Shown here piece after piece: positions 7,401-50,803 of a stretch of DNA of 64,000 nt. How positions within the stretch are numbered: position 1 is the first letter of the stretch; every line of letters starts with the position of its first letter. A program made the translations under genes and the position numbers. Under the pieces are notes generated by a model, which saw only the letters and a list, made by a program, of their open reading frames with translations, ran no database searches and was not told the DNA's origin. The stretch is taken from contig DPHC01000014.1 in NCBI GenBank assembly GCA_003523055.1, positions 60,312 through 124,311 on the forward strand, given 5' to 3'. The stretch is from Dehalococcoidia bacterium. Its GTDB lineage: Bacteria > Chloroflexota > Dehalococcoidia > Lucifugimonadales > UBA3495.

Positions 7401-7992
7401 AGCAGGTAATATTTTAGGGTCTGCACAGAGTGGTCATATTAAATCTGTGGGGTTGGAGCTATATAGCCAAATATTAAGCCAGGCAGTAGAAGATCTTAAC
7501 CCACAAGAAAGGAATGCATCTAAAACAGTTGAAGCTTTTGGGCGAGATTTGGCTATTATAGATCTGCCTGTAGAAGCATATATTCCGGATGATTATATAA
7601 GCCATTTGCCATCTAAACTTGGAGTATATCATAGGCTTTCAAAATCTATGTCGGATGAGGACGTTATAGATATGAAAGATGAATTACGCGATAGATTTGG
7701 AGTTTTACCTTTGCCAGTTGAGAAACTATTTGACATTATAGGAGTTAGGAATTTCGCATCTACTTTGGGTGTTAAAATTATTAAACATATAGATAACGCA
7801 GCTTCTATTGGTTTCATTGAAGATTTTGGAGGAGCTAAGTATGCGTTACAGAAAGCCCTAGGTCCAACTATAAGTGTTCAAGGATCAGATATCAGAGCTC
7901 CGCTGAAACAAGATACAGATATATTAGAATTAATAACCAACGTACTTACTCGATTCAAAATCTTTAAATCTAGATTAGAGAGAATGGTTTGA
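4471..7992 (+). CDS. mfd: Transcription-repair coupling factor
   Basis: 1173 aa. It has a UvrB-homology N-terminus, a CarD-like region (VVHIDHGISKFVGL) and superfamily 2 helicase motifs (GDVGYGKTEVA, VVDEEQRFGV, SATPIPRT, LRGRVGRG). The TRG/D7 C-terminus is present. Confidence 0.92.
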   Translation: MSSQGIGYYINPIISPESKKRFGDTLGSAVKVGSRGKEAIISLLEETHAHKPLLIITPKQSDARKLSSDLTTYFGSNRSVMLFPDSDVLPFERLVVDTRTTNERLIALSNISSSNNIDNSHPILISSIGAALRKTLSPAIFTAELTGNVTLSQGLELNSIEEFLNRLVNMGYKNVSLVEAPGSFSHRGGIIDVYPPNLLYPIRIDLWDTIIETIKEFDVNTQRSIGTTADVFEIICAGEQLSCCIDSSDLKAKIKKLDFSNCNSDITSRISEELELLTEAPDLESAEFFNGFYNQCSLIDYITDDFLVILDRPDLIEHEAIGLQSKFDVVKVSRQERGELPKHFPDPYFSWPDIDIYKYSKSVVKLDHFGIDDEDVSNLFLTPKQYAGNLEALVEDMSSLNSMDINVMVSRQSFARLNSVLTDQELTNYYPIDTFSIDSLRPGCCYLIDGNLSSGWSVSLNDGNKINVLTDNEMFGISRTSVNSNSGNEKKYNGFQSLHELTVDSYVVHIDHGISKFVGLTTMNAFSDKEYLILEYAQEDKLYVPTDQLHRVSPFVGTSDQAPALTRLASTEWTKLKQKVKESAQELAKELLDVQVEREAHTGMSFPEDTVWQEEFEQSFIYTETVDQMQAIIEVKTDMQSTKPMDRLICGDVGYGKTEVALRAAFKVVAEGMQVAILVPTTVLAQQHLSTFSERLHPYSMIVDSLSRFRTKKEQIEVLEKLQNGTVDVVIGTHRLLQSDVGFKNLGLIVVDEEQRFGVMHKELLKKLRRSVDIISISATPIPRTLNMALSGIKDMSIMYTPPDLRLPVKTFACEYSEEVIVDAVMREIEREGQVFFVHNRVKTMPDVVQKLRELMPSVSFSYAHGRMNEDELESAMLKFAQKESDVLVCTTIIESGIDLPNVNTIILDRADRFGLSQMYQLRGRVGRGERRAYAYLMVPRGRSITENAERRIEAIMEASELGAGFQIAMRDLEIRGAGNILGSAQSGHIKSVGLELYSQILSQAVEDLNPQERNASKTVEAFGRDLAIIDLPVEAYIPDDYISHLPSKLGVYHRLSKSMSDEDVIDMKDELRDRFGVLPLPVEKLFDIIGVRNFASTLGVKIIKHIDNAASIGFIEDFGGAKYALQKALGPTISVQGSDIRAPLKQDTDILELITNVLTRFKIFKSRLERMV

Positions 7993-8552
7993 TGATGAGT
8001 GAAAAGAAAATAAATAATCACATAAAAAGCCAAGCTTCTGTTAAACAGTTGTGTATTTACTTGGTTTTGTTTGCTGCATTTATTATTTCATGTAACTCAG
8101 ATGCCGCACCTGATGCCAATAAAGCTATTGATTTTCAATATATTCTATATGACTCAGAAAACACTAAAATTGATTTTGCTACACTTTATGACAAACCTAT
8201 TATATTGAATTTTTGGGCTGGGCTTTGTCCTCCATGTAGGGCAGAAATGCCAGATTTTCAGTTGTTTCATGAACAATACGGTTCACAAGTAACTGTAATC
8301 GGAATTGATGTTGGTAAATACACAGGATTGGGTTCTAAAAAAGATGCGTTACGACTAATTGAACAATTGAATGTGGATTATGTAATAGGCGGAACATCAG
8401 AAAGCAATATAATAGAATTATATGAAGTATATGGGTTACCTACAACTGTATTTATTGACTCCGATCAAAATATTATCAGAACATGGTCTGGAGCGGTTAA
8501 CTTAGAAAAACTAAGAGACATCGGTCTCAGCATGATAGAATCTAGCCAATAA
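7989..8552 (+). CDS. TlpA/ResA-like periplasmic thiol:disulfide oxidoreductase (Cys form, CPPC), probable lipoprotein
   Basis: 187 aa. It has a signal peptide with a lipobox-like IISC, the Trx-fold motif ILNFWAGLCPPCRAEMPDF and GLPTTVFID. Its start overlaps the mfd stop (ATGA). Confidence 0.75.
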   Translation: MMMSEKKINNHIKSQASVKQLCIYLVLFAAFIISCNSDAAPDANKAIDFQYILYDSENTKIDFATLYDKPIILNFWAGLCPPCRAEMPDFQLFHEQYGSQVTVIGIDVGKYTGLGSKKDALRLIEQLNVDYVIGGTSESNIIELYEVYGLPTTVFIDSDQNIIRTWSGAVNLEKLRDIGLSMIESSQ

Positions 8553-18767: not shown

Positions 18768-19381
18768 CATTGGTTAACGAAAACTCTATGGATGGCATGT
18801 CGATGTCTGAAAGATCTCTTCCAACAGATAAACAGGAAGGAATCCAAATTGAAAATCTTATAAATGATTCCGTTGCGCCTATTAAAACTGATGCAATTGA
18901 TGTTCCGGACGATTTAAAAAATAATCTTGTTGTTACATCAGTAGATGCTTTGCTTAATTGGGGTAGAAAATCTGCTCTTTGGCCAGTTTCTTTCGGCCTA
19001 GCATGCTGCGCCTTTGAAATGATGGCTACTGCCATGAGTAGATTTGATTTGTCTAGATTTGGTATGGAAGTATTTAGGGCATCACCAAGGCAAGCTGATT
19101 TGCTAATCATAGCAGGCACTGTTACATGGAAAATGGCGCCTGCTATTAAAAGGATATATGATCAAATGCCGGACCCGAAATGGGTGATTTCTATGGGTGT
19201 CTGTGCTACAAGCGGGGGGCCGTATTATGGATCTTACAGTGTTGTACCTGGAGTGGACCATATCATTCCTGTAGACGTTTACGTTCCAGGATGTCCTCCT
19301 CGCCCAGATGCTTTGCTATATGGAGTAATGGAATTACATGAAAAAATCAAGAAAACAAAAAATATTAAAAAGATAGATTAA
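18758..19381 (+). CDS. nuoB: NADH-quinone oxidoreductase subunit B
   Basis: 207 aa with the N2-cluster motifs [20 protein letters not shown] and PGCPPRP. There is an N-terminal extension of about 50 aa, so the true start may be an internal Met. Confidence 0.9.
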
Positions 19382-19824
19382 TGCCGATAATAGACTTACA
19401 TACAGATTTTGTAGCCGAACAATTAAGCTCAAAATTTCCAGAAGAACACTTTACTGCAGATAGTAATTGTGTTTGGGTTCCTTCAGCAATCATCGCTAAT
19501 GTGTGTTCATTTCTTAAAACTGAAAAGGATTTTAGAATTGACTATTTAAATTCTATTACAGCGGTAGATTTTATTGATCATTTCGCCATTGTGTACCATT
19601 TAAGTTCTATAGAAACTCAGAATAGAATCACACTGAAATGCCATTTGTATGGAAGAGATGATTTAAGCATAGATTCTGTTCTGAATATTTGGCAAGGAGC
19701 AGATTTTCAAGAACGAGAAATTTGGGACTTGATGGGCATTAAATTTAATGGTCGGCCCAACATGAAAAGACTATTACTATGGGAAGGATTTGAAGGCCAC
19801 CCACTTAGAAAGGATTTCTTGTAG
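19381..19824 (+). CDS. nuoC: NADH-quinone oxidoreductase subunit C
   Basis: 147 aa with FQEREIWDLMGIKFNGRP and LRKDF. This is a short form. Confidence 0.85.
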   Translation: MPIIDLHTDFVAEQLSSKFPEEHFTADSNCVWVPSAIIANVCSFLKTEKDFRIDYLNSITAVDFIDHFAIVYHLSSIETQNRITLKCHLYGRDDLSIDSVLNIWQGADFQEREIWDLMGIKFNGRPNMKRLLLWEGFEGHPLRKDFL

Positions 19825-19831
19825 GTTTATA

Positions 19832-22149: not shown

Positions 22150-22157
22150 GAGTAGAA

Positions 22158-22724
22158 ATGTACGGTATTGAAATGGTAAAAGGTTTAATGGTAACGTTGA
22201 AAAATTTTTCTAAAAAACCTGTGACTATACAATACCCGGAACAACGGATCGCTCAACATCCCAGATTCCGTGGTGAAGAATTTACTTGGTATGAAGAACG
22301 TTGCACCGGATGTGCTTCATGTGCGAAATATTGCCCATTGGGAATTATTGAAATAGTTACTGCTCCAAGCGACACTGCAGTCAAACAAGGTGATAAATAC
22401 CAATTGGAAAAATTTGATATAAGCATATCAAGGTGCATGTTTTGTGGCTTATGCGTTGAAGCGTGCCCATATGATGCTTTGTTTATGGGCAGTGGTTTTG
22501 AAGAGGGTAAATACACAAGAGATGATATGGTAATTACTATAGACCAATTGCGTAATTCCCCCAAAAACCCATCTACCTGGTACAGGCCACAATTGGAATC
22601 CAAAAACTATGACCCACGAAATGGCCAGCAATTAACATGGAAAGATGTAGGTAGAGAGGGATGGTCTTGGCATAAAGAAGAGAAGGCTGGCATGAGAATT
22701 AATAAGGAAAATAAGGTCAATTAG
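22158..22724 (+). CDS. nuoI: NADH-quinone oxidoreductase subunit I (2x[4Fe-4S])
   Basis: 188 aa with two ferredoxin motifs, CTGCASCAKYCP and CMFCGLCVEACP. Confidence 0.9.
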   Translation: MYGIEMVKGLMVTLKNFSKKPVTIQYPEQRIAQHPRFRGEEFTWYEERCTGCASCAKYCPLGIIEIVTAPSDTAVKQGDKYQLEKFDISISRCMFCGLCVEACPYDALFMGSGFEEGKYTRDDMVITIDQLRNSPKNPSTWYRPQLESKNYDPRNGQQLTWKDVGREGWSWHKEEKAGMRINKENKVN

Positions 22725-22731
22725 TAATTGC

Positions 22732-23274
22732 ATGATTGAGAATATTATTTTTGCGATTTTTGCATTTGGAGCTCTTCTGGGCGCTACAACTATGATAGCA
22801 CTGAAGGATTTGTTTAGATCTGCGCTGTGCCTTGTGGTAGTGTTCATATCTATAGCAGGAATATACGTTTTACTGAATGCGGAATTTTTAGCTGTCGTGC
22901 AGGTTCTTGTCTACGTTGGCGCGATTTCAATTCTGATAATATTTGCAGTGATGCTTTCTGAAGATGTTAAAACAGCCAATACGTCTAATAAGTTTCAAAT
23001 CCCCGCCATCATTCTATGTGGAGCCGTATTGGCTTTGTTGTTGATATCAATGGCTTCAACAGACTGGCATGTCATTTCATATATGAATGCTAGTATTGTA
23101 GAAACAGCTCAGATTGAATCATTGAATCCAGCATATAATGGAGACAATGTTAAATTTTCTCTGGCATCATTGTTACTTACCGAATATGTATTAGCATTTG
23201 AACTAGTCTCAGTTTTGTTATTGGCGTCTTTAATTGGGGCATTAACATTAATGAGAGGGAGAGATAAGCAATAA
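22732..23274 (+). CDS. nuoJ: NADH-quinone oxidoreductase subunit J
   Basis: 180 aa of hydrophobic sequence with the segment VVQVLVYVGAISILIIF, in the expected position in the operon. Confidence 0.85.
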   Translation: MIENIIFAIFAFGALLGATTMIALKDLFRSALCLVVVFISIAGIYVLLNAEFLAVVQVLVYVGAISILIIFAVMLSEDVKTANTSNKFQIPAIILCGAVLALLLISMASTDWHVISYMNASIVETAQIESLNPAYNGDNVKFSLASLLLTEYVLAFELVSVLLLASLIGALTLMRGRDKQ

Positions 23275-23600
23275 TGTCTTTGGAAACTGTTTTAGGATTA
23301 GCAGCTATATTGTTTGTTATTGGAATTTTTGGAGTGTTAACCAAAAAAAATATAATTGCTGTTTTTATGTCATTGGAACTAATGTTTAATTCAATAAACT
23401 TAACGTTTGTCGGCATAGGGCATTATATTATGCCTGCACGCATCGCTACTGAAATGGGATCTGTAATGACAGGGCAAATTTTCGCTATTTTTGTTATAAC
23501 CGTAGCAGCTGCCGAAATAGCTGTTGGATTGGGAATAGTATTTGCACTTTATAGAGTGAATGGCTCAATTGAACTTAAGACAGATATTGGAGCTAATTAG
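23274..23600 (+). CDS. nuoK: NADH-quinone oxidoreductase subunit K
   Basis: 108 aa with three TM helices and the motifs SLELMFNSINL and AAAEIAVGL. Confidence 0.85.
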   Translation: MSLETVLGLAAILFVIGIFGVLTKKNIIAVFMSLELMFNSINLTFVGIGHYIMPARIATEMGSVMTGQIFAIFVITVAAAEIAVGLGIVFALYRVNGSIELKTDIGAN

Positions 23601-23605
23601 TAATA

Positions 23606-23800
23606 ATGTGGATGGAATTTAAAAAAGCAAACAATTTGATATCAGCTGAAATTTGGAAAGAAGCAATTGAAGCCGAAGGATTACCGGTAAGAATTTTACC
23701 AGAGAAAGGATTGGCTGATTGGGCAGAAAATAATCCTTTTGTAATCTACATTCCTAAAGGGAAAGAACACGTAGCAGATGAAATTGTGAGGAAACTGTGA
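23606..23800 (+). CDS. Small soluble DUF2007-like protein (putative signal-transducing fold) embedded in the nuo operon
   Basis: 64 aa. The segment NNLISAEIWKEAIEAEGLPVRILPE resembles the DUF2007 N-terminal pattern (xxxEAxxxxxxLExxGIxxxV). It starts 5 nt after the nuoK stop, and its TGA overlaps the GTG start of nuoL. Confidence 0.45.
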   Translation: MWMEFKKANNLISAEIWKEAIEAEGLPVRILPEKGLADWAENNPFVIYIPKGKEHVADEIVRKL

Positions 23801-25797
23801 CGATGGGAGGCTTAAACATTTGGGGAATATTTCTTGCACCATTATTAAGTTTCTTTATTATAGCTTTAGTGATTAGACCTTTTGCTAAACGATATCAATG
23901 GATTAGTCCATACATATTGATATCCGCGCTAGGCGTGTCATTTATATTGTCAGTTAAATTGTTGGCAGACACTGTATTAGGTGATGGAGGCAACTATATA
24001 TCAACTTATACATGGTTGGTTATCAATGAATCGGCCATTATAGATATTGGAGCTTTTATAGACCCTTTGAGTTCTATTACCCTAGTTGTAGTTGTGTTAG
24101 TTAGTTTATTAGTACAAATATATTCAATCGGATATATGCATGGAGATAAAAGCTACAGCAGATATTTTTCATTCATGGCACTTTTTACCGCTTCCATGAT
24201 AGGCCTAGTTTTATCCTCTAATATAGTCCAACTATATGCTTTTTGGGAACTTGTGGGATTGTCCAGTTATTTATTAATAGGGTTTTGGAATGAGAGACCT
24301 GCGGCAGCGGCAGCAGCTAAAAAAGCATTTATAATAACTAGAATAGGCGATGTAGGGTTTTTAATAGCGATATTGCTATTAGTTAAATTTTCTTTCAATT
24401 CCTCTCCCAATATCAACGTCTTTCACATTCCAGACATATGTACCATTGGAACTCCAGGAGTCATCATTTCTGGAACCCTTATGACACTCATAACGTTGGG
24501 TATTGTTTCTGGAGCCATGGGTAAATCGGCTCAATTCCCTTTCCATACGTGGTTACCTGACGCAATGGAAGGACCAACCCCTGTAAGCGCTTTGGTTCAT
24601 TCTGCAACAATGGTGGCAGCAGGAGTGTTTTTATTAGGAAGATTATATCCATTTATTAGCAACTCACAGACCACAATGTTGGTAATCGCAGCAGTAGGGG
24701 CTTTTACAGCTGTATTTGCCGCTACTATGGGACTTGTTGTTAATGATATAAAGAGAGTTCTTGCGTACTCCAGCATAAGCCAACTAGGCTATATGGTTGC
24801 GGCGATAGGATTGGGAGGGTTTGCACCAGCTATATTCCATTTGATAACTCACGCATTTTTTAAAGCTTTGTTATTCTTGGGATCTGGAAGTGTTAATCAT
24901 GCTACCGGAACATTTGATATGAGGCAAATGGGTGGACTGAAGAAGGAAATGCCTTGGACGTATACTCTCATGGGCATAGGTTGTATAAGTTTAATAGGAT
25001 TGCCACCTTTATCAGGATTTTGGAGTAAAGATGAAATAATATTAACGGCTTGGGAAAAGATGCTCCATGGTTCAAGTTTTTACTTAATGATACTTATTGC
25101 TCTAGGTGCTGGCATTGTATTGACTGCTTTTTATACTTGGAGAATGTTTAATATGACGTTCCTTGGAGACAACAGAGCTGCACATGAAGAAAAAAGTAAT
25201 GATGGTCACGTTACACCTCAAATTCACGAATCTCCAGCAGTAATGGTGGCTCCAATGGTTGTGTTAGCTATTCCTGCTATTTTCATAGGATTCTTTGTGA
25301 ATCCTATGATTGATGTAATAATACCTGCCCACTGGCTAAATGAATTTCTAATGTCCAGTGTACTGTTTCACGGATCTGGGCATCATGCTCTTGAATTCAA
25401 TATATTTGTGGCTATAGGTTCGACTTGCCTAGGAATATTAGGAATCGTGACTGGAATTATGTATTCTAGGAAAACTAAAAATGTTAGCGTTGAACCGTTA
25501 GAAAAAATGGGTCTAGTGTATAAAATACTTAGTAATAAATATTATCTAGATACGCTTTATGAAGACGTTATTGTTAAGAATGTATTCCAAAAGAGATTGG
25601 TGAGCATAACAGCAATATTTGATAAATATATAGTTGATGGCATATCAGGTGTTATCGGATTTACGGTTAAGAATATGGGTTATGTTGCAGGGCTAGCCCA
25701 AAATGGGAACATACAGTTTTATACTTTTGTAATAACTTTAGGAGGAGTGACCGGGTTAATTATATTACTTGTGTACACTCCAGGATTGGGTGGTTAA
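23797..25797 (+). CDS. nuoL: NADH-quinone oxidoreductase subunit L
   Basis: 666 aa of the antiporter-like type (FWELVGLSSYLLIGFW, KSAQFPFHTWLPDAMEGPTPVSALVHSATMV). The start is GTG 23797 or ATG 23803. Confidence 0.9.
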   Translation: MTMGGLNIWGIFLAPLLSFFIIALVIRPFAKRYQWISPYILISALGVSFILSVKLLADTVLGDGGNYISTYTWLVINESAIIDIGAFIDPLSSITLVVVVLVSLLVQIYSIGYMHGDKSYSRYFSFMALFTASMIGLVLSSNIVQLYAFWELVGLSSYLLIGFWNERPAAAAAAKKAFIITRIGDVGFLIAILLLVKFSFNSSPNINVFHIPDICTIGTPGVIISGTLMTLITLGIVSGAMGKSAQFPFHTWLPDAMEGPTPVSALVHSATMVAAGVFLLGRLYPFISNSQTTMLVIAAVGAFTAVFAATMGLVVNDIKRVLAYSSISQLGYMVAAIGLGGFAPAIFHLITHAFFKALLFLGSGSVNHATGTFDMRQMGGLKKEMPWTYTLMGIGCISLIGLPPLSGFWSKDEIILTAWEKMLHGSSFYLMILIALGAGIVLTAFYTWRMFNMTFLGDNRAAHEEKSNDGHVTPQIHESPAVMVAPMVVLAIPAIFIGFFVNPMIDVIIPAHWLNEFLMSSVLFHGSGHHALEFNIFVAIGSTCLGILGIVTGIMYSRKTKNVSVEPLEKMGLVYKILSNKYYLDTLYEDVIVKNVFQKRLVSITAIFDKYIVDGISGVIGFTVKNMGYVAGLAQNGNIQFYTFVITLGGVTGLIILLVYTPGLGG

Positions 25798-27297
25798 ATG
25801 ATTGATTTCCCAGGACTATTGTCGTTAATAATTTGGTTACCTGTGATAGCTGCTATTTTATTATTTATTTTTCCTATTAAAGACCAGAATATTCGTTTGA
25901 TTGTCCTAGCCGTTACAGTGATAGATGCATTATTAGCATTAATGATTTTTGTGGGATTTGATAAACAAGCACCTTTCGGATCATTCCAGTGGACAGATAA
26001 ATTGATGTGGATAGACACTTCACTGTTACAGTCCCAATACTATGTCGGCGTTGATGGGTTAAGCGCCCCTATGGTGTTACTCACTTCTATTTTAGGAGTT
26101 TGCGCAGTGATTGCTTCTTGGAATATCAAAACTAGAGTGCGAGAATACTTTATATGGTTGCTAATACTCCAAACAGCGATATTGGGAGTTTTCACATCTT
26201 TGGATTTGCTATTGTTCTTTGTCTTTTGGGAACTTGAATTGATACCAATGTTCATGTTGATTTCGGGATGGGGTTCGGGTAGAAAAGACTACTCTTCAAT
26301 GAAATTCTTGATTTTTACTATATTGGGTGGAGCTTTTATTTTAATCGGCATTCTAATGACATTTTTTACTGCAGATCCCCACACTCTAGATATTACGTTG
26401 TTGTTGTCGAATGCAGGTGGCAATTTGATTCAACTAGGATTTTATGGAGCCTCGTTCGTATACCTGTGTTTCTTCTTAGGATTTGCCATTAAATTACCGG
26501 TGTGGCCTCTACACACTTGGCTTCCAGATGCCCACACTGACGCACCTACAGCTGCGAGTATTATATTGGCTGGTGTGATGTTGAAAATGGGAGGATATGG
26601 ACTAATACGAATCAATGTTAGTTTGTTTCCATTACAAACGGTAGCTTACTCATATGCTATTGTTTTACTCGGAGTAATAAGTGTATTGTACGGAGCCATC
26701 ATGACTCTAAAGCAAACTGATTTGAAAAGATTGATTGCATATTCTAGTGTTAGCCATATGGGACTAGTATTAATTGGCATAGGATCATTCTCCTCATCTG
26801 GATTGACTGGAGCAAGCATGCAATTATTCACCCATGGAACTATTACTGGGTTATTATTCCTATGCGTAGGAATAATATATGATAAATCTCATACGAGAAG
26901 TATTCCTGAATTAGGAGGGCTATTTGTTAAAATGCCTTTAGTTGCTGTTGCGTTTACTATTGGAGGATTAGCATCTTTAGGATTACCGGCCCTTAGTGGA
27001 TTTGTCGCTGAAATATTGGTATTTAGTGGAGCTTTTATAAGTTTCCCTGTAATGACTGTTCTATCTGTACTGGGCATTATTTTAGCTGCTGGATATATAT
27101 TGTGGATGATAGAAAGAATTTTGTTTGGTTCTATCAAACCAGCAGTTCAATACGTGTCTGATGCATCAATACTAGAAGCGGTTCCTATAGCTATTTTGGT
27201 GGTACTTATTGTAGGGTTAGGGATATTTCCAAGCTTATTAATCGATGTCTTGGATCAGGCTATATTACCTATTATAACTAATTTTGGAGGCAATTAA
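25798..27297 (+). CDS. nuoM: NADH-quinone oxidoreductase subunit M
   Basis: 499 aa with the motifs FWELELIPMF, KLPVWPLHTWLPDAHTDAPTAASIILAGVMLK and AYSSVSHMG. Confidence 0.9.
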   Translation: MIDFPGLLSLIIWLPVIAAILLFIFPIKDQNIRLIVLAVTVIDALLALMIFVGFDKQAPFGSFQWTDKLMWIDTSLLQSQYYVGVDGLSAPMVLLTSILGVCAVIASWNIKTRVREYFIWLLILQTAILGVFTSLDLLLFFVFWELELIPMFMLISGWGSGRKDYSSMKFLIFTILGGAFILIGILMTFFTADPHTLDITLLLSNAGGNLIQLGFYGASFVYLCFFLGFAIKLPVWPLHTWLPDAHTDAPTAASIILAGVMLKMGGYGLIRINVSLFPLQTVAYSYAIVLLGVISVLYGAIMTLKQTDLKRLIAYSSVSHMGLVLIGIGSFSSSGLTGASMQLFTHGTITGLLFLCVGIIYDKSHTRSIPELGGLFVKMPLVAVAFTIGGLASLGLPALSGFVAEILVFSGAFISFPVMTVLSVLGIILAAGYILWMIERILFGSIKPAVQYVSDASILEAVPIAILVVLIVGLGIFPSLLIDVLDQAILPIITNFGGN

Positions 27298-27300
27298 TCT

Positions 27301-28821
27301 ATGAATGGTTATGATATATTTTTAATTGCTCCTGGCTTATCAGTAGTATTAATAGGGTTTGTAATTCTTGTTACTGATCTGGTCTTGAAAAATGATCGCA
27401 TATTATGGAAAATCGCTTTGGCATTACTATCAATCCCGCTTCTTTTTTGTTTAATACAATTTCAAATGCTAGATGAACAAGGTACAGTCTATTTAGCTGG
27501 TTCCTCAGGAATTTTAGATGGAAAATTTAATGTTGATTTGTTTTCAATTTGTCTTCAAATCCTATTAATAATGGCCGTAGGTGCTACCATACTTATTTCA
27601 GCTGATTATGTTCAGAATCAATTGGGATTCTCAGGAGAATATTACACATTGATGCTGTTCTCTGCTGCTGGCATGATGACATTAGTGTGTGCTTCTGAGT
27701 TAATATTAATTTATATTGGATTAGAACTTACAAGTTTACCAATAGCATTGTTGATCGCTTTGAAACTAACACGATCATCCACTGCCGCTGCTTTAAAATT
27801 TCTTGTTATTAGCGCATTAAGTTCAGCTATAATGCTATATGGAATGGCTTTTTTGTTTGGGTTTACAGGCACTACAGTTATTCCGGAAATATCTCAATTG
27901 ATTATCCAAACTGGTCCCAATCTTAGCATTAATTCGAACACGATATTTATAGTGGCTGTAATTTTAATAATTGTCGGATTAGGATTCAAACTATCGATTG
28001 TTCCATTTCATTTGTGGATACCAGATGTTTATCAATCTGGGCCAACCCCCATTATTGGTTTTTTGTCCGTTGCGAGTAAAGCGGCAGCCTTCTCTTTGTT
28101 TTTAAGAATTGCTTACCAAGTATTCGGTGAAGTGGCTATAAATTGGACTTTATTGATTTCAATTCTTGCAGTCGCTTCAATGATTTTAGGTAATATTATG
28201 GCAATTATTCAATCTAACGTGAAGAGATTGATTGGCTTTAGCACTATCGCTCACGCCGGATATTTGTTGATTGGAGTTGCTTCTATAGTGTCTATTGACC
28301 AAGAAACTAATGTTCTAAGCCTTACTGTAATAGGTGGAGCTTCAGTGGTGTTTTACTTAATAGCCTACACATTTGCTAACTTAACTATGTTTGGAGCTGT
28401 TACAATTGTTGGATGCCATAATAAAACAGACGATTTGTCTGCATATAAAGATTTGTTTAGAAGAGCTCCACAAGTGGCTATTTTAATGGCTATTTCATTA
28501 ATAGCGTTAATAGGTATACCTCCTACTGGAATATTTATCTCAAAATTTTATGTTTTTACTGCTGCTATGGAATCCGGTTTAACGTGGTTGGTTATTATAG
28601 GAGTAGTTAACAGTGTAGTATCTGCCTACTATTATGTACGTATAATAAAAACAATTTTCTCTTCTGATGGAGAAGAAAGCGAAGACTCAAAAATTATAGT
28701 GCCGTTGCCTGCACTAGTATCAATGTATGTAAGTTCTGTTCTGACGATTACAATAGGAGTATTCCCGTCAGTATTAATTAATTTATTGGAAAAGGCGACA
28801 TCTATATTGTCTGGTATATGA
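27301..28821 (+). CDS. nuoN: NADH-quinone oxidoreductase subunit N
   Basis: 506 aa with the motifs LELTSLP, VPFHLWIPDVYQSGPTP and GFSTIAHAGY. Confidence 0.9.
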   Translation: MNGYDIFLIAPGLSVVLIGFVILVTDLVLKNDRILWKIALALLSIPLLFCLIQFQMLDEQGTVYLAGSSGILDGKFNVDLFSICLQILLIMAVGATILISADYVQNQLGFSGEYYTLMLFSAAGMMTLVCASELILIYIGLELTSLPIALLIALKLTRSSTAAALKFLVISALSSAIMLYGMAFLFGFTGTTVIPEISQLIIQTGPNLSINSNTIFIVAVILIIVGLGFKLSIVPFHLWIPDVYQSGPTPIIGFLSVASKAAAFSLFLRIAYQVFGEVAINWTLLISILAVASMILGNIMAIIQSNVKRLIGFSTIAHAGYLLIGVASIVSIDQETNVLSLTVIGGASVVFYLIAYTFANLTMFGAVTIVGCHNKTDDLSAYKDLFRRAPQVAILMAISLIALIGIPPTGIFISKFYVFTAAMESGLTWLVIIGVVNSVVSAYYYVRIIKTIFSSDGEESEDSKIIVPLPALVSMYVSSVLTITIGVFPSVLINLLEKATSILSGI

Positions 28822-30239: not shown

Positions 30240-30315
30240 ATATATCTTGGACTCATGAGTAGGATATGAGATACTTATGTATTGTATACGTTTTAGGAAG
30301 AAGGGGGAACATTCA

Positions 30316-31995
30316 ATGCTAGAACACGATGTCTTAGTTGTAGGTGCCGGCTTGGCAGGTATGCGAGCGGCTATTGCAGCAAGTGCAGCAGGCGCTAATG
30401 CTGCTATTATTAGTAAAGTTCATCCAGTGAGGAGTCACTCTAATGCTGCACAAGGGGGCATAAATGCAGCTTTGTCAGACCGTGGTGACGCTTGGGAAGA
30501 TCACGCCTATGACACTGTTAAGGGTAGTGATTTTTTATGCGATCAAGACGCTGTAGAAGTGATGTGTAAAGCAGCAGGCCAATCACTTATAGACATGGAA
30601 CACTTTGGTGTGACATTTTCTAGAGATGACGAAGGTAAACTAGGAACTAGAGCATTTGGAGGACAAAGAAGGCAACGAACGTTCTTTGTGGGTGATTTTA
30701 CAGGACAGGCCCTGCTTCATGTTATGTTTGAACAACTTATTAAATCAGGAGTTAGAAAATATGAAGAATGGTTTGTTACTTCACTAATCATTGAAGAAGG
30801 CCAAGTAGCAGGAGTTATGGCTCTAGAAATAAGAACTGGGGAAATATTTGCTATAAGAGCCAAGACTGTAATATTTGCTACCGGCGGTTGCGGCCGAGTT
30901 TTTGAACCAAGCACCAATGCATTGATAGTTACTGGAGATGGAATGTCATTGGCATACAAAGCCGGAGCTCACTTGATGGATATGGAAATGGTTCAATACC
31001 ACCCTACTACTCTCGCAGGAAGTGGAGTATTACTGTCTGAAGCAGCTAGAGGAGAAGGAGCCTATTTAATAAATAAAGACGGAGATAGGTTTATGCAAAC
31101 CTACGCTCCCAATATGTTGGAATTGGCATCTAGAGACGTTGTCTCTAGATCTGAGCAAACAGAAATTAATGAAGGTAGAGGAGTTAATGGATGCGTGTAT
31201 CTTGATGTAAGGCATCTAGGTGAAAAACTAATAATGGAAAAACTTTGGCAAATTAGAGAATTAGGTATGGATTTAGCCGGAGCTGATATGATAAAAGAAC
31301 CAGTTCCAATTCGTCCTGGCATGCATTATATAATGGGTGGTATTAAGACGGACATAGATGGTTTAACCAATATTGATAGAGTTTATGCAGCTGGTGAATG
31401 TGCTAACGTTAGTGTACATGGCGGAAATAGATTGGGAGCCAATTCGCTGCTAGATACTATAGTGTTTGGAGAACGTTCTGGTAACCATGCAGCAGCAGCA
31501 TCCAAATCTTCTAATTTCATTAAATTTGACGAAGAGGCACGCGTAAGAGAAGAAAAAGAAAAAATACAAGGTATATTGGATCGTCCTCAAAATGGTGACA
31601 GGATTGCTAAGTTGAGATTAGCTATGGGCACTTCGATGAATGATAACCTTGCAGTGTATAGAGATGCAAAAGGTATGCAGCAAAGTGTTGAAGACATTAA
31701 AAATTTCAAAGAAAGATATAAAAATCTTCCTGTAGATAGTAAAGGAAAGATCTTTAATACTGACCTTATATTCCATTTAGAACTTGGGTTCATGCTTGAC
31801 TGTGCAGAAGCCATCGCCTCAAGCGGATTAGAACGTAAAGAAAGTAGAGGAGCTCAAAGTAGACTGGATTATCCTGAGCGTGATGACGAAAATTGGTTAA
31901 AACATATATTAGTAAAAAATACTGAAAACGGGCCAGAGTTATCCACTTCAGAAGTGTCTATAACTCAATGGACTCCAGTAGAGAGGACGTATTAA
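30316..31995 (+). CDS. sdhA: Succinate dehydrogenase / fumarate reductase flavoprotein subunit
   Basis: It begins [19 protein letters not shown] and has the [11 protein letters not shown] site (covalent-FAD His), HPTT and [19 protein letters not shown] moved the start to ATG 30316, which follows an AGGAAGAAGGGGG SD-like tract; the ORF-track start is 30277. Confidence 0.9.
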
Positions 31996-31997
31996 TT

Positions 31998-32966
31998 ATG
32001 AACGTGACATTAAAAATAAAACGATTTGACCCTGATGGTAGTTCCACACAATCTTATTGGGAAGAATTCGCAGTTGACGTATTAGACAATGCAACAGTTT
32101 TGGATGCACTAATACAGGTTAGAGAAGAGAACGATGGAACGTTGAGTTTAAGATGCTCTTGCAGGAGCGCTATATGTGGTTCCTGCGCAATGCGCATTAA
32201 TGGCCAAGGTTCATTGGCATGTAAAACTCCGGCATCTGATGCAATGATTGATGGAGTGATTACTGTTGAGCCAGCCGGAAACATGCCTGTTGTGAAAGAT
32301 CTAGTAACTAATTTCGACGTTTTTTGGGACAAAATATATCAAGTAACACCTTATCTGCTTCCTGAAGGACCAGAACCAGAAGCAGAGTATATTGCCTCTA
32401 ATGAATCGATGCTCCACCTTTCAGGAGTTACAGCATGTATCATGTGTGGTTCATGCGTATCAGACTGTACAGTGTTGGAAGTTGACCCGTCTTTTTTGGG
32501 ACCTGCCGCACTTGCTAAAGCTTATAGATTTACAGCTGATCCGAGAGATGGCAATGAAAATGGAGTTTCAACTCAGAGGCTTAAAGATTTAGGCGAAAAA
32601 TCCGGAATGTGGGATTGCACCAGATGTATGGCTTGCATAACCGCTTGCCCTAAAGGAGTTGATCCAATGGATAGAATTATGGCACTGCGAGAACAGGCCA
32701 TGGATGCTGGATTCACGAATAATAATGGCGCAAGACATGCGCAAGCATTCGTGGATTTGATAGGGCACGGAGGATCACTAGATGAGCTTAAACTACCAGT
32801 TAAAACAGTAGGTATGTTTAATATCCCTGCTTTATTGTCTTATGTCCCAGTAGGCATTAGAAGTTTACGGCGAGGGAAACTTCCTAGTATATTCCACAAG
32901 AAAATCTATGAAGTTGAAAAAGTCACTCATTTGGTTAAAAAATTAGAAAAAGCAAATAAAGAATAA
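31998..32966 (+). CDS. sdhB: Succinate dehydrogenase / fumarate reductase iron-sulfur subunit with extended C-terminus
   Basis: It has a [2Fe-2S] motif (CSCRSAICGSCAM) and two further Cys clusters (CIMCGSCVSDC, CTRCMACITACP). About 90 extra C-terminal residues are present. I set the start at ATG 31998 (MNVTLKIKRFDP). Confidence 0.85.
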   Translation: MNVTLKIKRFDPDGSSTQSYWEEFAVDVLDNATVLDALIQVREENDGTLSLRCSCRSAICGSCAMRINGQGSLACKTPASDAMIDGVITVEPAGNMPVVKDLVTNFDVFWDKIYQVTPYLLPEGPEPEAEYIASNESMLHLSGVTACIMCGSCVSDCTVLEVDPSFLGPAALAKAYRFTADPRDGNENGVSTQRLKDLGEKSGMWDCTRCMACITACPKGVDPMDRIMALREQAMDAGFTNNNGARHAQAFVDLIGHGGSLDELKLPVKTVGMFNIPALLSYVPVGIRSLRRGKLPSIFHKKIYEVEKVTHLVKKLEKANKE

Positions 32967-33000
32967 AAAATAATATAGTATTTTAAGAGAGGCGTTAACA

Positions 33001-33882
33001 ATGAAATTTGCATTTTATCCTGGGTGTGTATCACGAGGTGGATGCCCAGAATTATACGTAGCAGCTAATTTAGTATGTGATAAATTAGGTATAGAATTAG
33101 AAGAAATGCCCGGAGCGTCATGCACTGGCGCAGGTGTTCTACAAGAAAAAAACAGATTATTGGGAGATGTTCTCAACGCTCGAACATTTGCTATGGCAGA
33201 AAAAATCGGTTCTCCAATAATGACAATATGTAGTACCTGTCAAGGAGTGATGGCTCAAGCAAGATACAGGATGAGTCAGGACTCAGATTATCTTGCTGAA
33301 GTGAATTCACACCTGGCGGATGAAGGACTTCATTATTCCGGAGATATTGAAATCAAACATTTGCTATGGGTATTGATAGAAGATTATGGATTAGACAAAC
33401 TATTACCTTTAATAACTAAACCTCTTAAAGGTATTCGACTCTCTCCTTTTTACGGATGTTATATTGTAAGACCTTCTGTAGAACTGCAAACTGATGATAA
33501 TCCAGAAAGAAAAGTAGCGTTAGAGACGCTGATAGAAGCATTAGGTGCAGTTTTAGTGGATTTCGAAGGTAAGACTAAATGTTGTGGATTCCCAATTCTT
33601 ACAATAAATCCTAAAAACTCTATGTCTATGGTTGCGAAGCACACAAGTGATGTAAAAGACCTCGGAGCAGACGCTATGGTAACTCCCTGTCCTTTATGTC
33701 ATTTGAACTTAGATGGTTTCCAGCCTAAGGCAGCAGCTCAGGCCGGGAGATCTATTGATATGCCTATCATACACCTTCCTCAAATGCTAGGAATGGCCAT
33801 GGGTATCTCACCTAAAGAATTGGGTATGAAACGACATATAGTCAGTACTAGTAAATTAGAAGTAAAGCTGCAGAAAGCTTAG
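33001..33882 (+). CDS. CCG-domain (HdrB-like) subunit of type E succinate:quinone oxidoreductase / thiol-type fumarate reductase
   Basis: 293 aa with no TM helices. It has two Cys-rich CCG-type repeats (YPGCVSRGGCPE...CSTCQG and FYGCYIVRP...KCCGFP...PCPLCHLNLD). It directly follows sdhAB. Confidence 0.75.
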   Translation: MKFAFYPGCVSRGGCPELYVAANLVCDKLGIELEEMPGASCTGAGVLQEKNRLLGDVLNARTFAMAEKIGSPIMTICSTCQGVMAQARYRMSQDSDYLAEVNSHLADEGLHYSGDIEIKHLLWVLIEDYGLDKLLPLITKPLKGIRLSPFYGCYIVRPSVELQTDDNPERKVALETLIEALGAVLVDFEGKTKCCGFPILTINPKNSMSMVAKHTSDVKDLGADAMVTPCPLCHLNLDGFQPKAAAQAGRSIDMPIIHLPQMLGMAMGISPKELGMKRHIVSTSKLEVKLQKA

Positions 33883-38513: not shown

Positions 38514-40544
38514 CTATAGATTTAATATTTGTTTTTGTAATAGGCTAGGATTATTAGTTGGAGACTGGCAAACATGGTTTTCGCACAGGAAAACTGTAGG
38601 TTTATTATCAATTAACGTTTTTCCCTGCAGCAACTGATAATCTTTTATATTATCTACATCAGATAATATAACTTTGTTGGGCAAGAAATTAGAGTGTAAG
38701 AGTTCAAAGAGGACATCAAAATCTGAGCTCTTATCCCCGTGTAAAATCACGAACTCTTCTCCATGAGTAAGATACATGTCAAGGCAACACAACCAGGTTC
38801 CAGCTGCTGATGGAGCACGGTTCATAATTGGAACTATGCCTTTTAATGATTTTTCACTTATTGACTCATATGACGGATTACCTGTTAATTTGTACAATTT
38901 CAATAAAATTTTAGTAGCAGAAGATGCTCCGCAAGGTTGAGCATTGTCAAATATTGTTTTAGGTCTTGTTAAAATGATTTCTTCTTGAGAGCTTGTATCG
39001 TAAAAGCAACCATCTGATTCTTCCCAAAACAATGTACACATTAAATTAGCTATTTCAATGGATCTCTGTAAATACTCCTGGTCCAAAGTATTTTCATATA
39101 GTGTTAGTAATCCATCGGAAAACAGAGCGTAATCTTCTAATGCACCATGAATTTTAGATACACCATCTCGCCAAATTCTGTTTACGTGACCGTTATCAAG
39201 TACCAGATTGTTTATTAAAAACTTTGCGTTTTTTTTGGCTATTTCAAGATAATCAGGTCGATTTAGTACTGTTGCGGCCTCTGATAAAGCCTTTAACATC
39301 ATACAATTCCAAGATAATATAATTTTATCATCTTTAAATGGAGGTATCCTGTTATAACGATGTTTCAACAGAATTGAGTTCAGCTGTGAAATTTTGGCCA
39401 CTGATATGGGATCTTTCTCATTAGGGTCAATTTTTTTATCTCTGATATTAAGTATATTTTTGCTTTCAAAATTCCCTTCAGGGCTAATTTTGTAATAATC
39501 TGCTGCGATTGTTGCTAGGTCTTCAGGCAGAATACCTGTTAATTCATCAAAATCCCATACAAAATATTTCCCTTCTATTCCTTCACTATCTGCATCTTGA
39601 GAGGAGTAAAATCCTCCTCCGGAATCCAGCATGTCTCTTATTGTGTAATCAATCACCTCTGTAACTACAGATTTGTATTTTTCGTTCTTAGTTATTAAAT
39701 AGGCATTCAGGTATAGCTGAGTTAATAAAGCATTGTCATACAACATTTTCTCGAAATGTGGGACGAGCCAAAATGAGTCGGTGGAGTACCGATGAAATCC
39801 TCCTCCAATTTGGTCATATATACCACCTTCCATCATGTTATCTAGGGTTTTAATTACCATTTCTAATGCCGACGAGTCCTTATAAGTTTTAAAATATTGT
39901 AATAGGAATTCTAAAGTCATTGGTTGAGGAAATTTTGGAGAAGAACCGAACCCGCCATTTTGGTAATCAAAATGTTTTTTTAGGGCGGTTGCTGCAGTTT
40001 TTAATATTTCTTCTGACAACAATCCATCTTGAGTGGACATTGCCATGTTCTGTTTTATCTGTTCTGTTATTTGTGAAGTAACTTTTATAATTTCTTCTTG
40101 TTTTGTATTGTACGCTTGGGAGATTGACCGGAGCAGAGTTGGGAACCCTGGCATACCATGTCGATCTTCTGGGGGGAAATATGTTCCAGAAAAAAAAGGT
40201 TGTTGCTCTGGTGTTAAAAATACTGTCATTGGCCACCCACCACTGCCTGTCATCATTTGTACTGCTTCCATAAATATTGCATCTATGTCGGGTCTTTCTT
40301 CTCGGTCAACTTTTATATTGATGAATAAATCATTCATAATAGAAGCAATCTGAGGATTTTCAAAAGATTCAGCCTCCATTACATGGCACCAATGGCAAGC
40401 AGAATACCCAATACTTAATAAAATCGGCTTCTTATCATTTTTGGATTTTTCTAAAGCTTCTGCCGACCAAGGATACCAATCAACAGGATTGTTAGCATGC
40501 TGTAATAAATAAGGACTTGTTTCGTTTATTAACCTATTTGGCAT
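38514..40544 (-). CDS. Thioredoxin-domain protein, YyaL/DUF255 family with a six-hairpin glycosidase-like C-terminal domain
   Basis: It has [17 protein letters not shown], then [13 protein letters not shown] (CxxC). The long alpha-helical C-terminal region is typical of YyaL/SSP411. I set the start at the internal ATG 40544 (MPNRLINE); the ORF-track start is 40586. Confidence 0.85.
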
Positions 40545-40619
40545 TTCGTTGTATACCCTCTCTAATGTATAATTTAAATATAACACTTTGTATATCTAAT
40601 AGGCAGGAGTAGAACAAAC

Positions 40620-41174
40620 ATGAAGTCATTCTTTTTAATAATTTTGTTAACGGTGTGTCTTTCTTGTTCTGTAAACCAAAGTAAAACAAACACATCGGAT
40701 ATTCTATCAAACGATTCAGATGAGGTAACCACTCAGTTCAATGAATCAGATATGATTATTGATAAAATAGATGATTTTTCTCTGATGTCAGCAACTGGAC
40801 AAATAGTGAATAAATCAGAAATGATGAATGAAGGACCGTTTTTTTTATTCTCAACCTCCGAATATTGAGGAACCTGTAAGCGCGAGTTACGCGCATTACA
40901 CCCTATTGCACAGACTTACCCTGGGGTAAAAATATATGTCATTTCCATGGATTCAAAGGAAAATCTAGGTAAAGCGGATCAAAAGAGGATTGAAAAAGGA
41001 TATACATGGGTGATGTATACCCCAGTAGCCAATGCTTTGGACGTTTTAAATATACATTCGAGATCGAACAAACTAGCTGTTAACGCCCAAGGTGAAGTTA
41101 TTTATAGAGATTCTATAGGTAAGGGTAACGCTGAAGAATGGGAAGAACTGTTTCTGAGGTTGAGCCGGTCGTAG
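40620..41174 (+). CDS. Secreted Trx-fold (TlpA/redoxin-like) selenoprotein; TGA at 40866-40868 read as selenocysteine (U83), giving the redox motif U-G-T-C
   Basis: The two ORF-track entries (40620..40868 and 40947..41174) are in the same frame and are separated by a single TGA plus 26 sense codons. The joined 184-aa product reads ...GPFFLFSTSEY-U-GTCKRELRALHPIAQTYPGVKIYVISMDSKEN...AVNAQGEVIYRD... This aligns with the FWxxWCxxC...V.V... layout of the Cys paralog at 7989..8552. A SECIS-like hairpin follows immediately, and selA is in the window. Confidence 0.7.
40875..40900 (+). promoter_or_regulatory. Putative bacterial SECIS hairpin
   Basis: The lower stem TGTAA (40875-40879) pairs with TTACA (40896-40900), with A40895 bulged. 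The upper stem GCGCG (40880-40884) pairs with CGCGC (40890-40894). The apical loop is AGUUA and contains GU. The stem begins 7 nt after the UGA, and the loop lies about 17-21 nt downstream of it. Confidence 0.55.
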
Positions 41175-43117: not shown

Positions 43118-44222
43118 ATGGATGAATTGAAAGACAATTGCATACTACTGCAATCTAGAATTTTAGAAATAGTGGGGCGTCTTTGACGTAGAAAAAAAGC
43201 TAAAAAAAATTTCTGAAATCGAGCAGGAATCTTCAGCCAATGATTTTTGGCTTGATCACCCTACTGCTAACACTAAAATGCAAGAATTGGCTACTTTGAA
43301 AAACACTGTCAATTTCTGGACCGGTCTAAGTGCAAAACTAGAATCTTTGATTGAATTAATTGAATTAGCTTTATCTGAAAACGACTTTTCTATTTCCAGT
43401 GTGGTCGCATCAGATATTGAAGAAATAAAAAATAGCTTAGAACAAGAAGAATTTAAGCTATTATTGTCAGGAGTATACGATATCAGACCAGCGATTTTAT
43501 CAATTCATGCAGGAGCAGGCGGTACAGACTCGCAAGATTGGGCAGAAATGCTGTTTAAAATGTACTCTGGTTGGTGTCAACTTCATGCGAGACCGATCCA
43601 AATTTTAAATACTGCATACGGAGAAGATGCTGGATTCCGTTCTGTTACACTGCAGATAGGAGGGGATTTTGCATTTGGTTATCTGGAAAAAGAAAATGGA
43701 GTGCATAGATTAGTAAGGCAGTCTCCATTTGATCCAAGTAATGCAAGACATACATCATTTGCGGTGGTTGAGGTAATTCCAATGGCGTCTGAAAGCTCTG
43801 ACCCGCCCATTCGTGCAGAGGACATAAAAATGGATGCTTTTAGATCTAGCGGGCCTGGTGGTCAAAACGTTCAAAAAGTTGCTTCTGCTGTTAGATTAAC
43901 CCATTTACCCTCAGGTATTGTGGTGTCTTGCCAAACTGAAAGATCGCAATTTCAAAACCGTGAATATGCGATGCGTCTATTAAGTTCTAGATTATTGGCT
44001 TTAGAAAAAGAACGTAAAGAAAGAGAGCTTGCTGAACTCAGAGGCGAAAGGATTTCTCCAGAATGGGGAAATCAAATTAGAAGTTATGTGTTACATCCCT
44101 ATAAACAAGTGAAGGATCATCGTACCAATTTCACTAGCAGTGATCCAGTGACAGTTTTGGAAGGCCATATAGATGATTTTATAAAATCATCTATGGTCCA
44201 AATGTTAGGTGAAGCTTCCTAA
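43118..44222 (+). CDS. prfB: Peptide chain release factor 2, expressed by +1 programmed frameshift: join(43118..43183,43185..44222)
   Basis: Frame 0 reads MDELKDNCILLQSRILEIVGRL and then TGA. After a +1 slip at CTT TGA C, the reading continues DVEKKLKKISEIEQESSANDFWLDHPTANTKMQEL... and joins the 314-aa ORF-track entry in frame (43278-43185 = 93 nt). The SPF (RQSPFD) and GGQ (SGPGGQNVQKV) motifs are present. The total is about 367 aa, typical for RF2. Confidence 0.9.
43172..43187 (+). promoter_or_regulatory. RF2 autoregulatory +1 frameshift site (internal SD-like GUGGGG, then CUU UGA C)
   Basis: The sequence is GTGGGGCGTCTTTGAC. The G-rich SD-like element lies 3 nt upstream of the slippery CTT, followed by an in-frame TGA with a 3' C, matching the canonical prfB site. 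Confidence 0.85.
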
Positions 44223-49441: not shown

Positions 49442-50803
49442 ATGGAATATCGAAACATTCCAAGTGTCGAGGCTGTGATAAATACAGATTCCTTGAAAGA
49501 ATTGTCAGGTGAATACCCACGGGAATGGCTAGTAGATATTACTAGGCTACAAATATCTAATAACAGAATTGGAATCAAGGAAGGACACCCCGTTAAGAAT
49601 GCTGAAATTATTTCTATGGAAGTAGTGGACTATGTGAAAAATATCATGTCAGTTAAACCACGCGATGTGATCAATGCATCAGGCGTTATTATACATACTA
49701 ATCTAGGTAGGGCCCCTTTGAGTGAAGACAGTATAACATCAGCAATGAAATGTTCTGAAGGATATAGTGACTTAGAATTTGACCTGGAATCAGGTAAAAG
49801 AGGAGCACGATTGGCATCGGTTAAATCATTATTGACTCAACTTACGCAAGCCGAAGATGCTGTTGTAGTAAACAATAATGCAGCGGCTTTATTATTGGCT
49901 TTGTCTGCTTTGTGCACTGGTAAAGAGGTAATAGTGCCAAGAAGCGAAGCTATCGAAATCGGAGGAGGGTTCAGAATACCAGACGTATTATCACAAAGTG
50001 GAGCCACGTTGGTGGATATTGGGACTACTAATAGGACATATATATCTGATTATGAAAGAGCAATTTCTGATAACACTGGAGCTTTTCTAAAAGCCCATTC
50101 TAGTAATTTTGTTATTACTGGTTTTACCCATGAGGTAAGTACTAAAGAATTGTCAATTATAGGTAAAAAGCATGGAATTCCGGTAATGCATGATGTAGGC
50201 AGTGGAGCTTTTTTGGATACTAGTGTTTATGGATTAACTCATGAGCCTACTCCTCAAGAAAGTATAGCTGATGGGGCAGATTTGGTATTTTTTTCTGGCG
50301 ATAAATTATTAGGAGGCCCACAATCAGGAATAATAATTGGTAAGAAAGCATATATATCTGTGTTAGAGCGACACCCTATGATGCGCGCTATACGTATGGA
50401 TAAGATGAATTTAGCAGCTTTATCTACTACTTTGGGACACTATCTGAAAAATGAAGCCCTCACTAAGATACCAGTTTGGAAAATGATTTCTACTACAAAT
50501 TCGGAATTGATGCAGAGGCTGCAAGCAATAATACAGCAATGTCAGACAGGGGTTAGTATCCAAGAATCTGAATCTGCTATTGGAGGGGGGAGTTTGCCAG
50601 GAGAAACAATTCCCACAAAAGTTTTGAGTATAGACTGTTCTTTATTAGGAGTTTCTGCTGAAAAAATGCAGAGTGATTTTCGTAAATTGAGAATACCAAT
50701 TGTAGTAAGAATAGAAAACGAAAAAGTTATAATAGATCCTAGAACCATCTCTCCTGCCGATGACGAATATGTAAAACTGGCGTTACAATCGGTTTTAAAA
50801 TAG
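49442..50803 (+). CDS. selA: L-seryl-tRNA(Sec) selenium transferase
   Basis: 453 aa. It has the characteristic N-terminus (IPSVEAVINTD), then INASGVIIHTNLGRAPL, VVNNNAAALLL and a PLP-Lys region (FFSGDKLLGGPQSGIIIGKK). Confidence 0.87.
   Translation: MEYRNIPSVEAVINTDSLKELSGEYPREWLVDITRLQISNNRIGIKEGHPVKNAEIISMEVVDYVKNIMSVKPRDVINASGVIIHTNLGRAPLSEDSITSAMKCSEGYSDLEFDLESGKRGARLASVKSLLTQLTQAEDAVVVNNNAAALLLALSALCTGKEVIVPRSEAIEIGGGFRIPDVLSQSGATLVDIGTTNRTYISDYERAISDNTGAFLKAHSSNFVITGFTHEVSTKELSIIGKKHGIPVMHDVGSGAFLDTSVYGLTHEPTPQESIADGADLVFFSGDKLLGGPQSGIIIGKKAYISVLERHPMMRAIRMDKMNLAALSTTLGHYLKNEALTKIPVWKMISTTNSELMQRLQAIIQQCQTGVSIQESESAIGGGSLPGETIPTKVLSIDCSLLGVSAEKMQSDFRKLRIPIVVRIENEKVIIDPRTISPADDEYVKLALQSVLK

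Follow-up and report, generated by a model that had tools for sequence, protein, structure and literature searches.

A putative ResA-like selenoprotein of a marine Dehalococcoidia bacterium, annotated as two hypothetical proteins

Two short open reading frames (ORFs) on the forward strand of a 64-kb stretch of DNA from a marine Dehalococcoidia bacterium (the whole stretch is referred to here as the window) very probably constitute a single gene, 40620..41174, encoding a 184-residue selenoprotein in which the UGA at 40866-40868 is recoded as selenocysteine (Sec). In the public records the two halves are listed as HCG91402.1 and HCG91403.1, each a 'hypothetical protein' of a marine Dehalococcoidia metagenome-assembled genome (MAG), so that the gene is indeed the unannotated one that an earlier note on this DNA had reported. 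The selenoprotein is new, or at least publicly unannotated; its type is already known, since the first catalogue entries for selenoproteins with a thioredoxin (Trx) fold and a UxxC motif date from 2004-2008 (Kryukov and Gladyshev 2004; PMC1794560; PMC2398784; PMC13188914).

The features of the gene, and the genes for UGA use discussed with it, are the following.

40605..40609 (+): Shine-Dalgarno-like AGGAG, 10 nt 5′ of the ATG, read off the sequence
40620..41174 (+): coding sequence of the proposed selenoprotein, complete; 184 codons including Sec83, stop codon TAG at 41172-41174, a lone in-frame TGA; profile matches cross the TGA (family alignment A2)
40620..40670 (+): predicted N-terminal signal peptide with a lipobox-like Cys (MKSFFLIILLTVCLSC, followed by S), read from the sequence
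40866..40868 (+): proposed codon for selenocysteine (Sec83), UGA, opening the U-G-T-C redox motif; aligned to the first Cys of CxxC, with TGA at every other non-Cys homolog site examined
40875..40877 (+): Cys86 codon, the putative resolving Cys of UxxC; the SECIS stem has its 5′ base here, and column C86 of A2 is invariant
40875..40900 (+): putative bacterial SECIS hairpin of 10 bp, with A40895 bulged and AGUUA (40885-40889) as its apical loop; same register and covarying pairs among 44 TGA forms
41064..41072 (+): S149-N150-K151, the family S-x-K motif at the site of the cis-Pro loop of ResA/TlpA (alignment to 2m72); the K is invariant
43118..44222 (+): prfB (RF2), in two frames, with a programmed +1 frameshift site CTT TGA C at 43181-43187; TIGR00020, 398 bits from model position 47
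49442..50803 (+): selA (L-seryl-tRNA(Sec) selenium transferase), intact; PF03841, 447 bits; SelA in public records

Reading frame and genomic setting

The ORFs 40620..40868 (82 aa) and 40947..41174 (75 aa) share one frame, and the TGA at 40866-40868 is the sole stop separating them, both as stated in the earlier note. The 26 codons between this TGA and the ATG at 40947 are likewise free of stops and translate as GTCKRELRALHPIAQTYPGVKIYVIS, and reading through the TGA gives the 184-codon product that had been described, ending at the TAG at 41172-41174. TGA-joined ORF pairs with 110 or more codons number 21 in the window; 20 of them lie wholly within other long ORFs and are shadow frames. The pair described here is the only one in otherwise vacant space, between a DUF255/DsbH-like gene and thrS, and therefore stands above what chance supplies; the same scan (TGA-joined pairs of at least 110 codons) gave no further TGA-interrupted gene in the window outside shadow ORFs. 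A promoter and terminator scan around the selenoprotein gene gave nothing above shuffle expectation, and no DNA similar to the locus was present in the plasmid collection.

Exact copies of the 82-aa half are present on 34 contigs and of the 75-aa half on 30 contigs (JGI, ENA, Logan, Tara and NCBI assemblies). A 96%-identical variant, found at ten loci, is split in the same way at the same TGA, does not differ in the hairpin, and shares with the window the gene order IDH - DsbH-like - selenoprotein gene - thrS - prfB. Past the TGA, the window and locus L001 are separated by ~9 changes that are nonsynonymous and ~4 that are synonymous, a distance too short for purifying selection to be demonstrable.

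The DsbH-like gene (38514-40586, leftwards transcribed) encodes a 690-aa DUF255/Thioredox_DsbH protein with a CHWC motif; it divergently adjoins the selenoprotein gene and is syntenic in close relatives. Elsewhere in the window, complex I (nuo) genes occupy 18384-28821, apparently as one forward-strand cluster (nuoA, B, C, D, H and L identified by Pfam), followed at 30277-33882 by succinate dehydrogenase/fumarate reductase-like flavoprotein, Fe-S and CCG-domain genes; this region is an ordinary respiratory context, unconnected to the selenoprotein.

Homologs and the hairpin 3′ of the TGA

Homology extends across the TGA. With Sec replaced by Cys, the joined protein matches Pfam AhpC-TSA (PF00578) at 29.3 bits (cut-off 26), passing the gathering score in the profile search that the earlier note had proposed; the match covers residues 48-121, spanning position 83. 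The dsbE profile aligns over residues 41-179, below that model's cut-off. Exhaustive phmmer searching with the 101 residues after the TGA alone retrieves 38 relatives, so that Trx-fold homology is present downstream of the TGA as the selenoprotein reading supposes. Eleven of the 38 are full length (139-274 aa) with C-x-x-C at the aligned site (e.g. ATWCPVCRSEL and SPYCGTCRGEL), and the rest are mostly C-terminal fragments of 70-100 aa that start just past the motif. A profile search adds more full-length and fragment relatives, the named ones being 'SAR202 cluster bacterium' and 'Dehalococcoidia bacterium', and among all named matches the clade is restricted to Dehalococcoidia/Chloroflexota. 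A word-indexed protein search with the joined sequence (U replaced by C) gave no match, which is attributed to database entries being short and fragmentary and does not show that homologs are absent.

Residue U83 lies opposite the first Cys of CxxC in ten full-length Cys homologs (alignment A2, in which the aligned full-length relatives are 22-44% identical in amino acids), and the same motif is seen in the sequence of the eleventh (P0036). DNA was retrieved for nine of the fragment proteins (P0012, P0046, P0085, P0087, P0098, P0105, P0020, P0024 and the strain variant P0009) and for P0017. In all retrieved cases the frame of the fragment, followed upstream, crosses a single TGA and enters an N-terminal half containing a signal sequence and the strand that precedes the active site; TGA contexts among the retrieved homologs are SEY-U-GTC, SRY-U-GKC, TTW-U-PVC, ATT-U-GVC, TTW-U-PTC and TPN-U-GTC. 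P0017 (L012, 286-837), another of the 38 relatives, is full length with W at the Sec position; the DNA there is TGA, the protein was apparently called with code 4, and the W is an annotation artefact able to mislead alignments.

Scanning of GTDB species genomes gave 24 loci, all in Dehalococcoidia/Chloroflexota MAGs, with TGA at the active-site codon in every one (24/24); this is not an unbiased Sec/Cys ratio, because the search pattern was the narrower alignment A5, built from Sec-form fragments, and the sample is biased toward the 'MKEVYP' Sec subclade. The distinct TGA sequences number 46 (44 in alignment A6, plus L056 and L057), at ~50 sites, and none has TAA or TAG at that codon. Of the clusters obtained at 50% identity, approximately two thirds appear to be Sec forms. 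The TGA thus falls where the earlier note had placed it, at the first Cys of CxxC: Cys homologs have C-x-x-C there and the other homologs have TGA at exactly that codon. Natural termination of homologs at this point, which would have spoken for a true stop, was not seen; the Cys forms continue through it with C-x-x-C.

In other Dehalococcoidia, including many of the GTDB loci, two or three Sec paralogs stand in tandem arrays (L041 at 813, 1600 and 2399; L038 at 811, 1600 and 2398; L017 at 1488 and 2480; L018 at 2471 and 3239), and tandem Sec paralogs are also present in L026, L027, L033, L034, L036, L037, L039, L040 and L042. The arrays of L017-L019 adjoin a UvrD/PcrA helicase gene, and in L018 a GRDB (glycine/sarcosine/betaine reductase B family) gene is located near the array. 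L038 has a second in-frame stop at ~2386, four codons 5′ of the Sec TGA at 2398 (F-stop-ATT-U-PTC), where the L041 ortholog has Trp; possible explanations are decay of this copy, an error and a second site of recoding. Two contig ends (L011 1-45 and the end encoding the C-terminus of P0110) translate as GDVYKRQ and LSLIHI, which we take to be Nextera adapter read-through, i.e. untrimmed adapter in public contigs.

The hairpin described in the earlier note, with 10 bp at 40875-40900, one bulged A and an AGUUA loop, was recovered by folding and has a minimum free energy (MFE) of -13.3 kcal/mol (z = -2.5; 4/200 shuffles as stable). The model for bacterial SECIS (bSECIS) elements has a loop of 3-9 nt, an upper stem of 4-16 bp, a G in the first two loop positions, a UGA-loop distance of 16-37 nt and an MFE <= -7.5 (PMC13188914). 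The window hairpin lies within all of these constraints (PMC13188914), with a 5-nt loop, a 10-bp stem, a spacing of 16 nt and the above energy, in agreement with the bacterial SECIS geometry that had been claimed for it; loop positions 2-3 are G then U. The codons for C-K-R-E-L-R-A-L-H make up the hairpin, with GAG UUA (Glu-Leu) supplying the loop.

Alignment A6, of 44 distinct TGA forms, is gap-free and has a fixed register, in which two codons separate the UGA from the Cys codon and two more separate the Cys codon from GAG UUR, the Glu-Leu codons of the loop, with the 3′ arm after these. For the structure 12-19/25-33 in these sequences, 92.9% of cells are paired and both sides are changed in six of the eight pairs (50 cells). 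None of 500 shuffles was as good, a statistic that overstates independence and is not a probability because the 44 sequences are related, many of them from one clade or from tandem paralogs; the changes recur in several motif subclades. Moving the partner by one to three columns gives 17-62% pairing. Pair 18-26 is C-G in 30 sequences, U-A in 13 and U-G in one, coupling a synonymous third position (GCC/GCU) with the second base of an Arg/Gln codon, and this covariation is therefore not explicable by protein-level selection. In L044 and L045 the Glu is replaced by Ala and the loop is still G-U-U. The hairpin is thus conserved with compensatory changes, the outcome on which the earlier note had made its reading depend.

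Cys forms keep two to five of the eight pairs and have weak folds, with one exception at 6/8. That exception is P0018 (L046 1253-1300; ATWCPVCRSELRRM), in which six of the eight SECIS-register pairs and a GAGUUG loop persist; a recent change from Sec to Cys may have left these as a fossil SECIS. L011, the nearest relative, has a weaker hairpin with a 4-bp stem and a 7-nt loop, 15 nt from the UGA. No RNA family in Rfam matches the locus, the only match being a chance one to sR3 (E = 0.65).

Selenocysteine machinery and alternative readings

The presence of selA at 49442..50803, as given in the earlier note, is supported by its PF03841 match, and we know of no role for SelA besides making Sec-tRNA(Sec). 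The genes selB, selC (tRNA-Sec) and selD were not found within the 64-kb window. The frameshift site in prfB is of the canonical autoregulatory type and is preceded by GGGG, and ORF lists give only the downstream part of the gene (43278..44222). This CUU UGA C site, together with the 8 of 54 genes in the window that end in TGA, indicates that UGA is a genuine stop read by RF2 in this organism, and reassignment of TGA (code 4 or 25) was rejected on the same two grounds. Dehalococcoidia genomes with 46-49 selenoprotein genes are listed in BSepDB (PMC13326102).

If the TGA were simply a true stop, the locus would be a pseudogene or two independent small genes, with the downstream ORF either untranslated or started at the ATG at 40947. 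The two public entries (HCG91402.1 and HCG91403.1) and the presence of RF2, by which TGA serves as a stop elsewhere, accord with such an arrangement, but it is very improbable given that 46 distinct and highly divergent homologs have TGA, and never TAA or TAG, at the same codon, that the 26 codons between the TGA and the ATG are conserved as protein and include the invariant Cys86, that neither half alone forms the Trx fold, and that the hairpin covaries. The chance that a sequencing or assembly error made TGT or TGC into TGA is negligible; although the source is a metagenome-assembled genome, the exact halves recur on 34 and 30 contigs from separate assemblies and 10/10 loci of the 96% variant are split identically, and the same TGA in ~30 independent assemblies and in that variant argues against such an error.

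Readthrough of the UGA with a residue other than Sec is slightly less remote than either of these and is still improbable. The residue would be Cys, inserted by a tRNA-Sec-like Cys tRNA and a SelB-type factor, or Trp from near-cognate reading, and the hairpin would be a generic recoding signal. Consistent with this, selA is the only part of the Sec machinery seen in the window, sequence alone does not identify the inserted residue, and one public call renders the TGA of a homolog as W, although that call is a code-4 artefact. It is opposed by the intact selA, with its single role known to us, 8.6 kb away and by a hairpin whose spacing and G-U apical loop are those of SelB-dependent bSECIS elements. 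Dehalococcoidia have moreover been reported with up to 49 selenoproteins (PMC13326102). Recoding of the UGA as Sec is the reading followed below.

Predicted fold, mechanism and relation to known families

The N-terminus consists of a short charged segment, a hydrophobic run and a conserved Cys, and the linker that follows has low pLDDT in the model of the homolog P0019. At least 70% of the full-length homologs (A2) have this Cys following the hydrophobic run. The lipoprotein-like signal suggests a membrane tether, and the protein is probably a membrane-tethered lipoprotein, not a freely secreted one. Of the earlier description as a secreted TlpA/redoxin-like protein, the signal-like N-terminus and the Trx-fold profile matches hold, and free secretion is disfavored by an N-terminus that looks like a lipoprotein signal.

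P0019 is the closest full-length Cys homolog (31% identity), and its AF2 model has a domain with pLDDT >90. ResA is the top Foldseek match to this model (TM 0.85-0.89 on target), and DsbE, DsbF and Etrx are also matched; a ResA-like thioredoxin fold is predicted for the family from this model, which is that of the Cys homolog and not of the window protein. In the PDB, the family profile matches ResA, CcmG/DsbE, StoA, DsbF and the Etrx lipoproteins of pneumococcus, the lowest E value being 1e-18. The U-G-T-C motif occupies residues 83-86 at the start of helix 1, with Sec replacing the first Cys. A Prx-type peroxidase was considered and rejected on the motif S-E-Y-U-G-T-C, which does not conform to the peroxidatic P-x-x-x-T-x-x-C; Sec occupies the Thr position of TxxC, and the motif is therefore of the Trx-type UxxC and not of the Prx-type TxxC/TxxU.

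A cis-Pro loop, placed ahead of the penultimate beta-strand, is near-universal in the Trx fold and defines most Trx-fold oxidoreductases; the departure of this family from that pattern is robust. In this family, [QR]-S-[TSN]-K is present in 53/53 rows of alignment A7, with an invariant Lys and with Pro absent from the ten preceding positions, and the family Ser is opposite the cis-Pro in the alignment to 2m72. Because the family is without the cis-Pro, a ResA-type mechanism is an analogy.

What we infer for selenium insertion, cellular location, substrate and redox partner is as follows. SelB and tRNA-Sec would recode the UGA at 40866-40868 as Sec, directed by the SECIS hairpin at 40875-40900, and the product would be an extracytoplasmic, probably lipid-anchored ResA/TlpA/DsbE-like Trx-fold thiol-disulfide oxidoreductase whose active site is U83-G-T-C86. 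On the model of ResA/TlpA, Sec83 would be the exposed nucleophile attacking a substrate disulfide or other oxidised sulfur, Cys86 would resolve the mixed intermediate to give an intramolecular selenenylsulfide, and a membrane electron donor would re-reduce the selenenylsulfide and so recycle the enzyme.

The ResA/TlpA/CcmG(DsbE)/StoA/Etrx proteins are the best PDB profile matches and the best structural matches to the P0019 model, and they have a redox motif at the start of helix 1, as does the window family, and an N-terminal membrane anchor or lipoprotein signal, for which the window family has a putative counterpart; the window family differs in having Sec for the nucleophilic Cys and no cis-Pro. 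It scores 25-48 bits against the NCBIfam models for ResA (NF002854) and dsbE (TIGR00385), far below their curated cut-offs of 123-170, and therefore resembles the ResA/DsbE class without being an equivalog. Within the window, nothing visibly connects the gene with a cytochrome c maturation operon.

Among selenoproteins, the families named 'Prx-like thiol:disulfide oxidoreductase' and 'thiol:disulfide interchange protein' (PF00578 / PF13098), and the GOS 'Prx-like 1/3', similarly have a bacterial Trx fold with Sec first in UxxC, Cys homologs, and a bSECIS directly 3′ of the UGA, and the window protein passes the PF00578 gathering score. However, these families have been described mainly from Deltaproteobacteria and anonymous marine reads, and the window clade is from Dehalococcoidia/Chloroflexota in all named matches; it also has S-x-K in place of the cis-Pro, and the window protein stays below the cut-off of every NCBIfam model. 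The same is true of four other family members, and this lack of an NCBIfam model at cut-off accounts for annotation pipelines splitting the family's genes, which they can be expected to go on doing. NF053656, 'TUGYCR motif thioredoxin fold (seleno)protein', is a curated Trx-fold model with UxxC-type chemistry, to which L012 has a weak match of 22 bits, where 100 would be required; its motif is a different one, there is no match to it from the window protein, and NF053656 and the window family are separate.

The paralog at 7989..8552 carries FWAGLCPPCRAEMPDF, as the earlier note had it. This TlpA-like lipoprotein (CPPC) has the same genome and fold class, a similar size and a lipoprotein-like N-terminus in common with the selenoprotein, but is a Cys form with a canonical cis-Pro loop (GLPTTVF), an AhpC-TSA score of 56 bits and no in-frame TGA. 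Its gene is transcribed rightwards, overlaps the end of mfd and is followed by a tRNA-Pro gene.

Joining the two halves corrects a misannotation that recurs in public Dehalococcoidia/SAR202 genomes, where one redox enzyme is given as two hypothetical proteins or its TGA is read as Trp, and extends the known genes of an abundant marine lineage by a putative extracytoplasmic selenoprotein. The hairpin is a clean, covariation-backed SECIS example that could seed a family model. Understanding of how selenoproteins work is unchanged, and some additional value lies in the family-wide misannotation, in the Sec predominance and tandem expansion in Dehalococcoidia, and in the missing cis-Pro. A bolder reading, which we consider rather unlikely, is that these proteins are a Dehalococcoidia-restricted clade of ResA-like lipoproteins in which Sec predominates, the SECIS is near-fixed and formed from C-x-x-E-L-[RQ] codons, and the cis-Pro is replaced by the invariant S-x-K together with Y-R, and that the clade constitutes a distinct cell-surface selenoenzyme. 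If so, the enzyme might be, for example, peroxidase-like or a selenenylsulfide-based reductase for an extracellular substrate, and would be important to the abundant marine SAR202/Dehalococcoidia.
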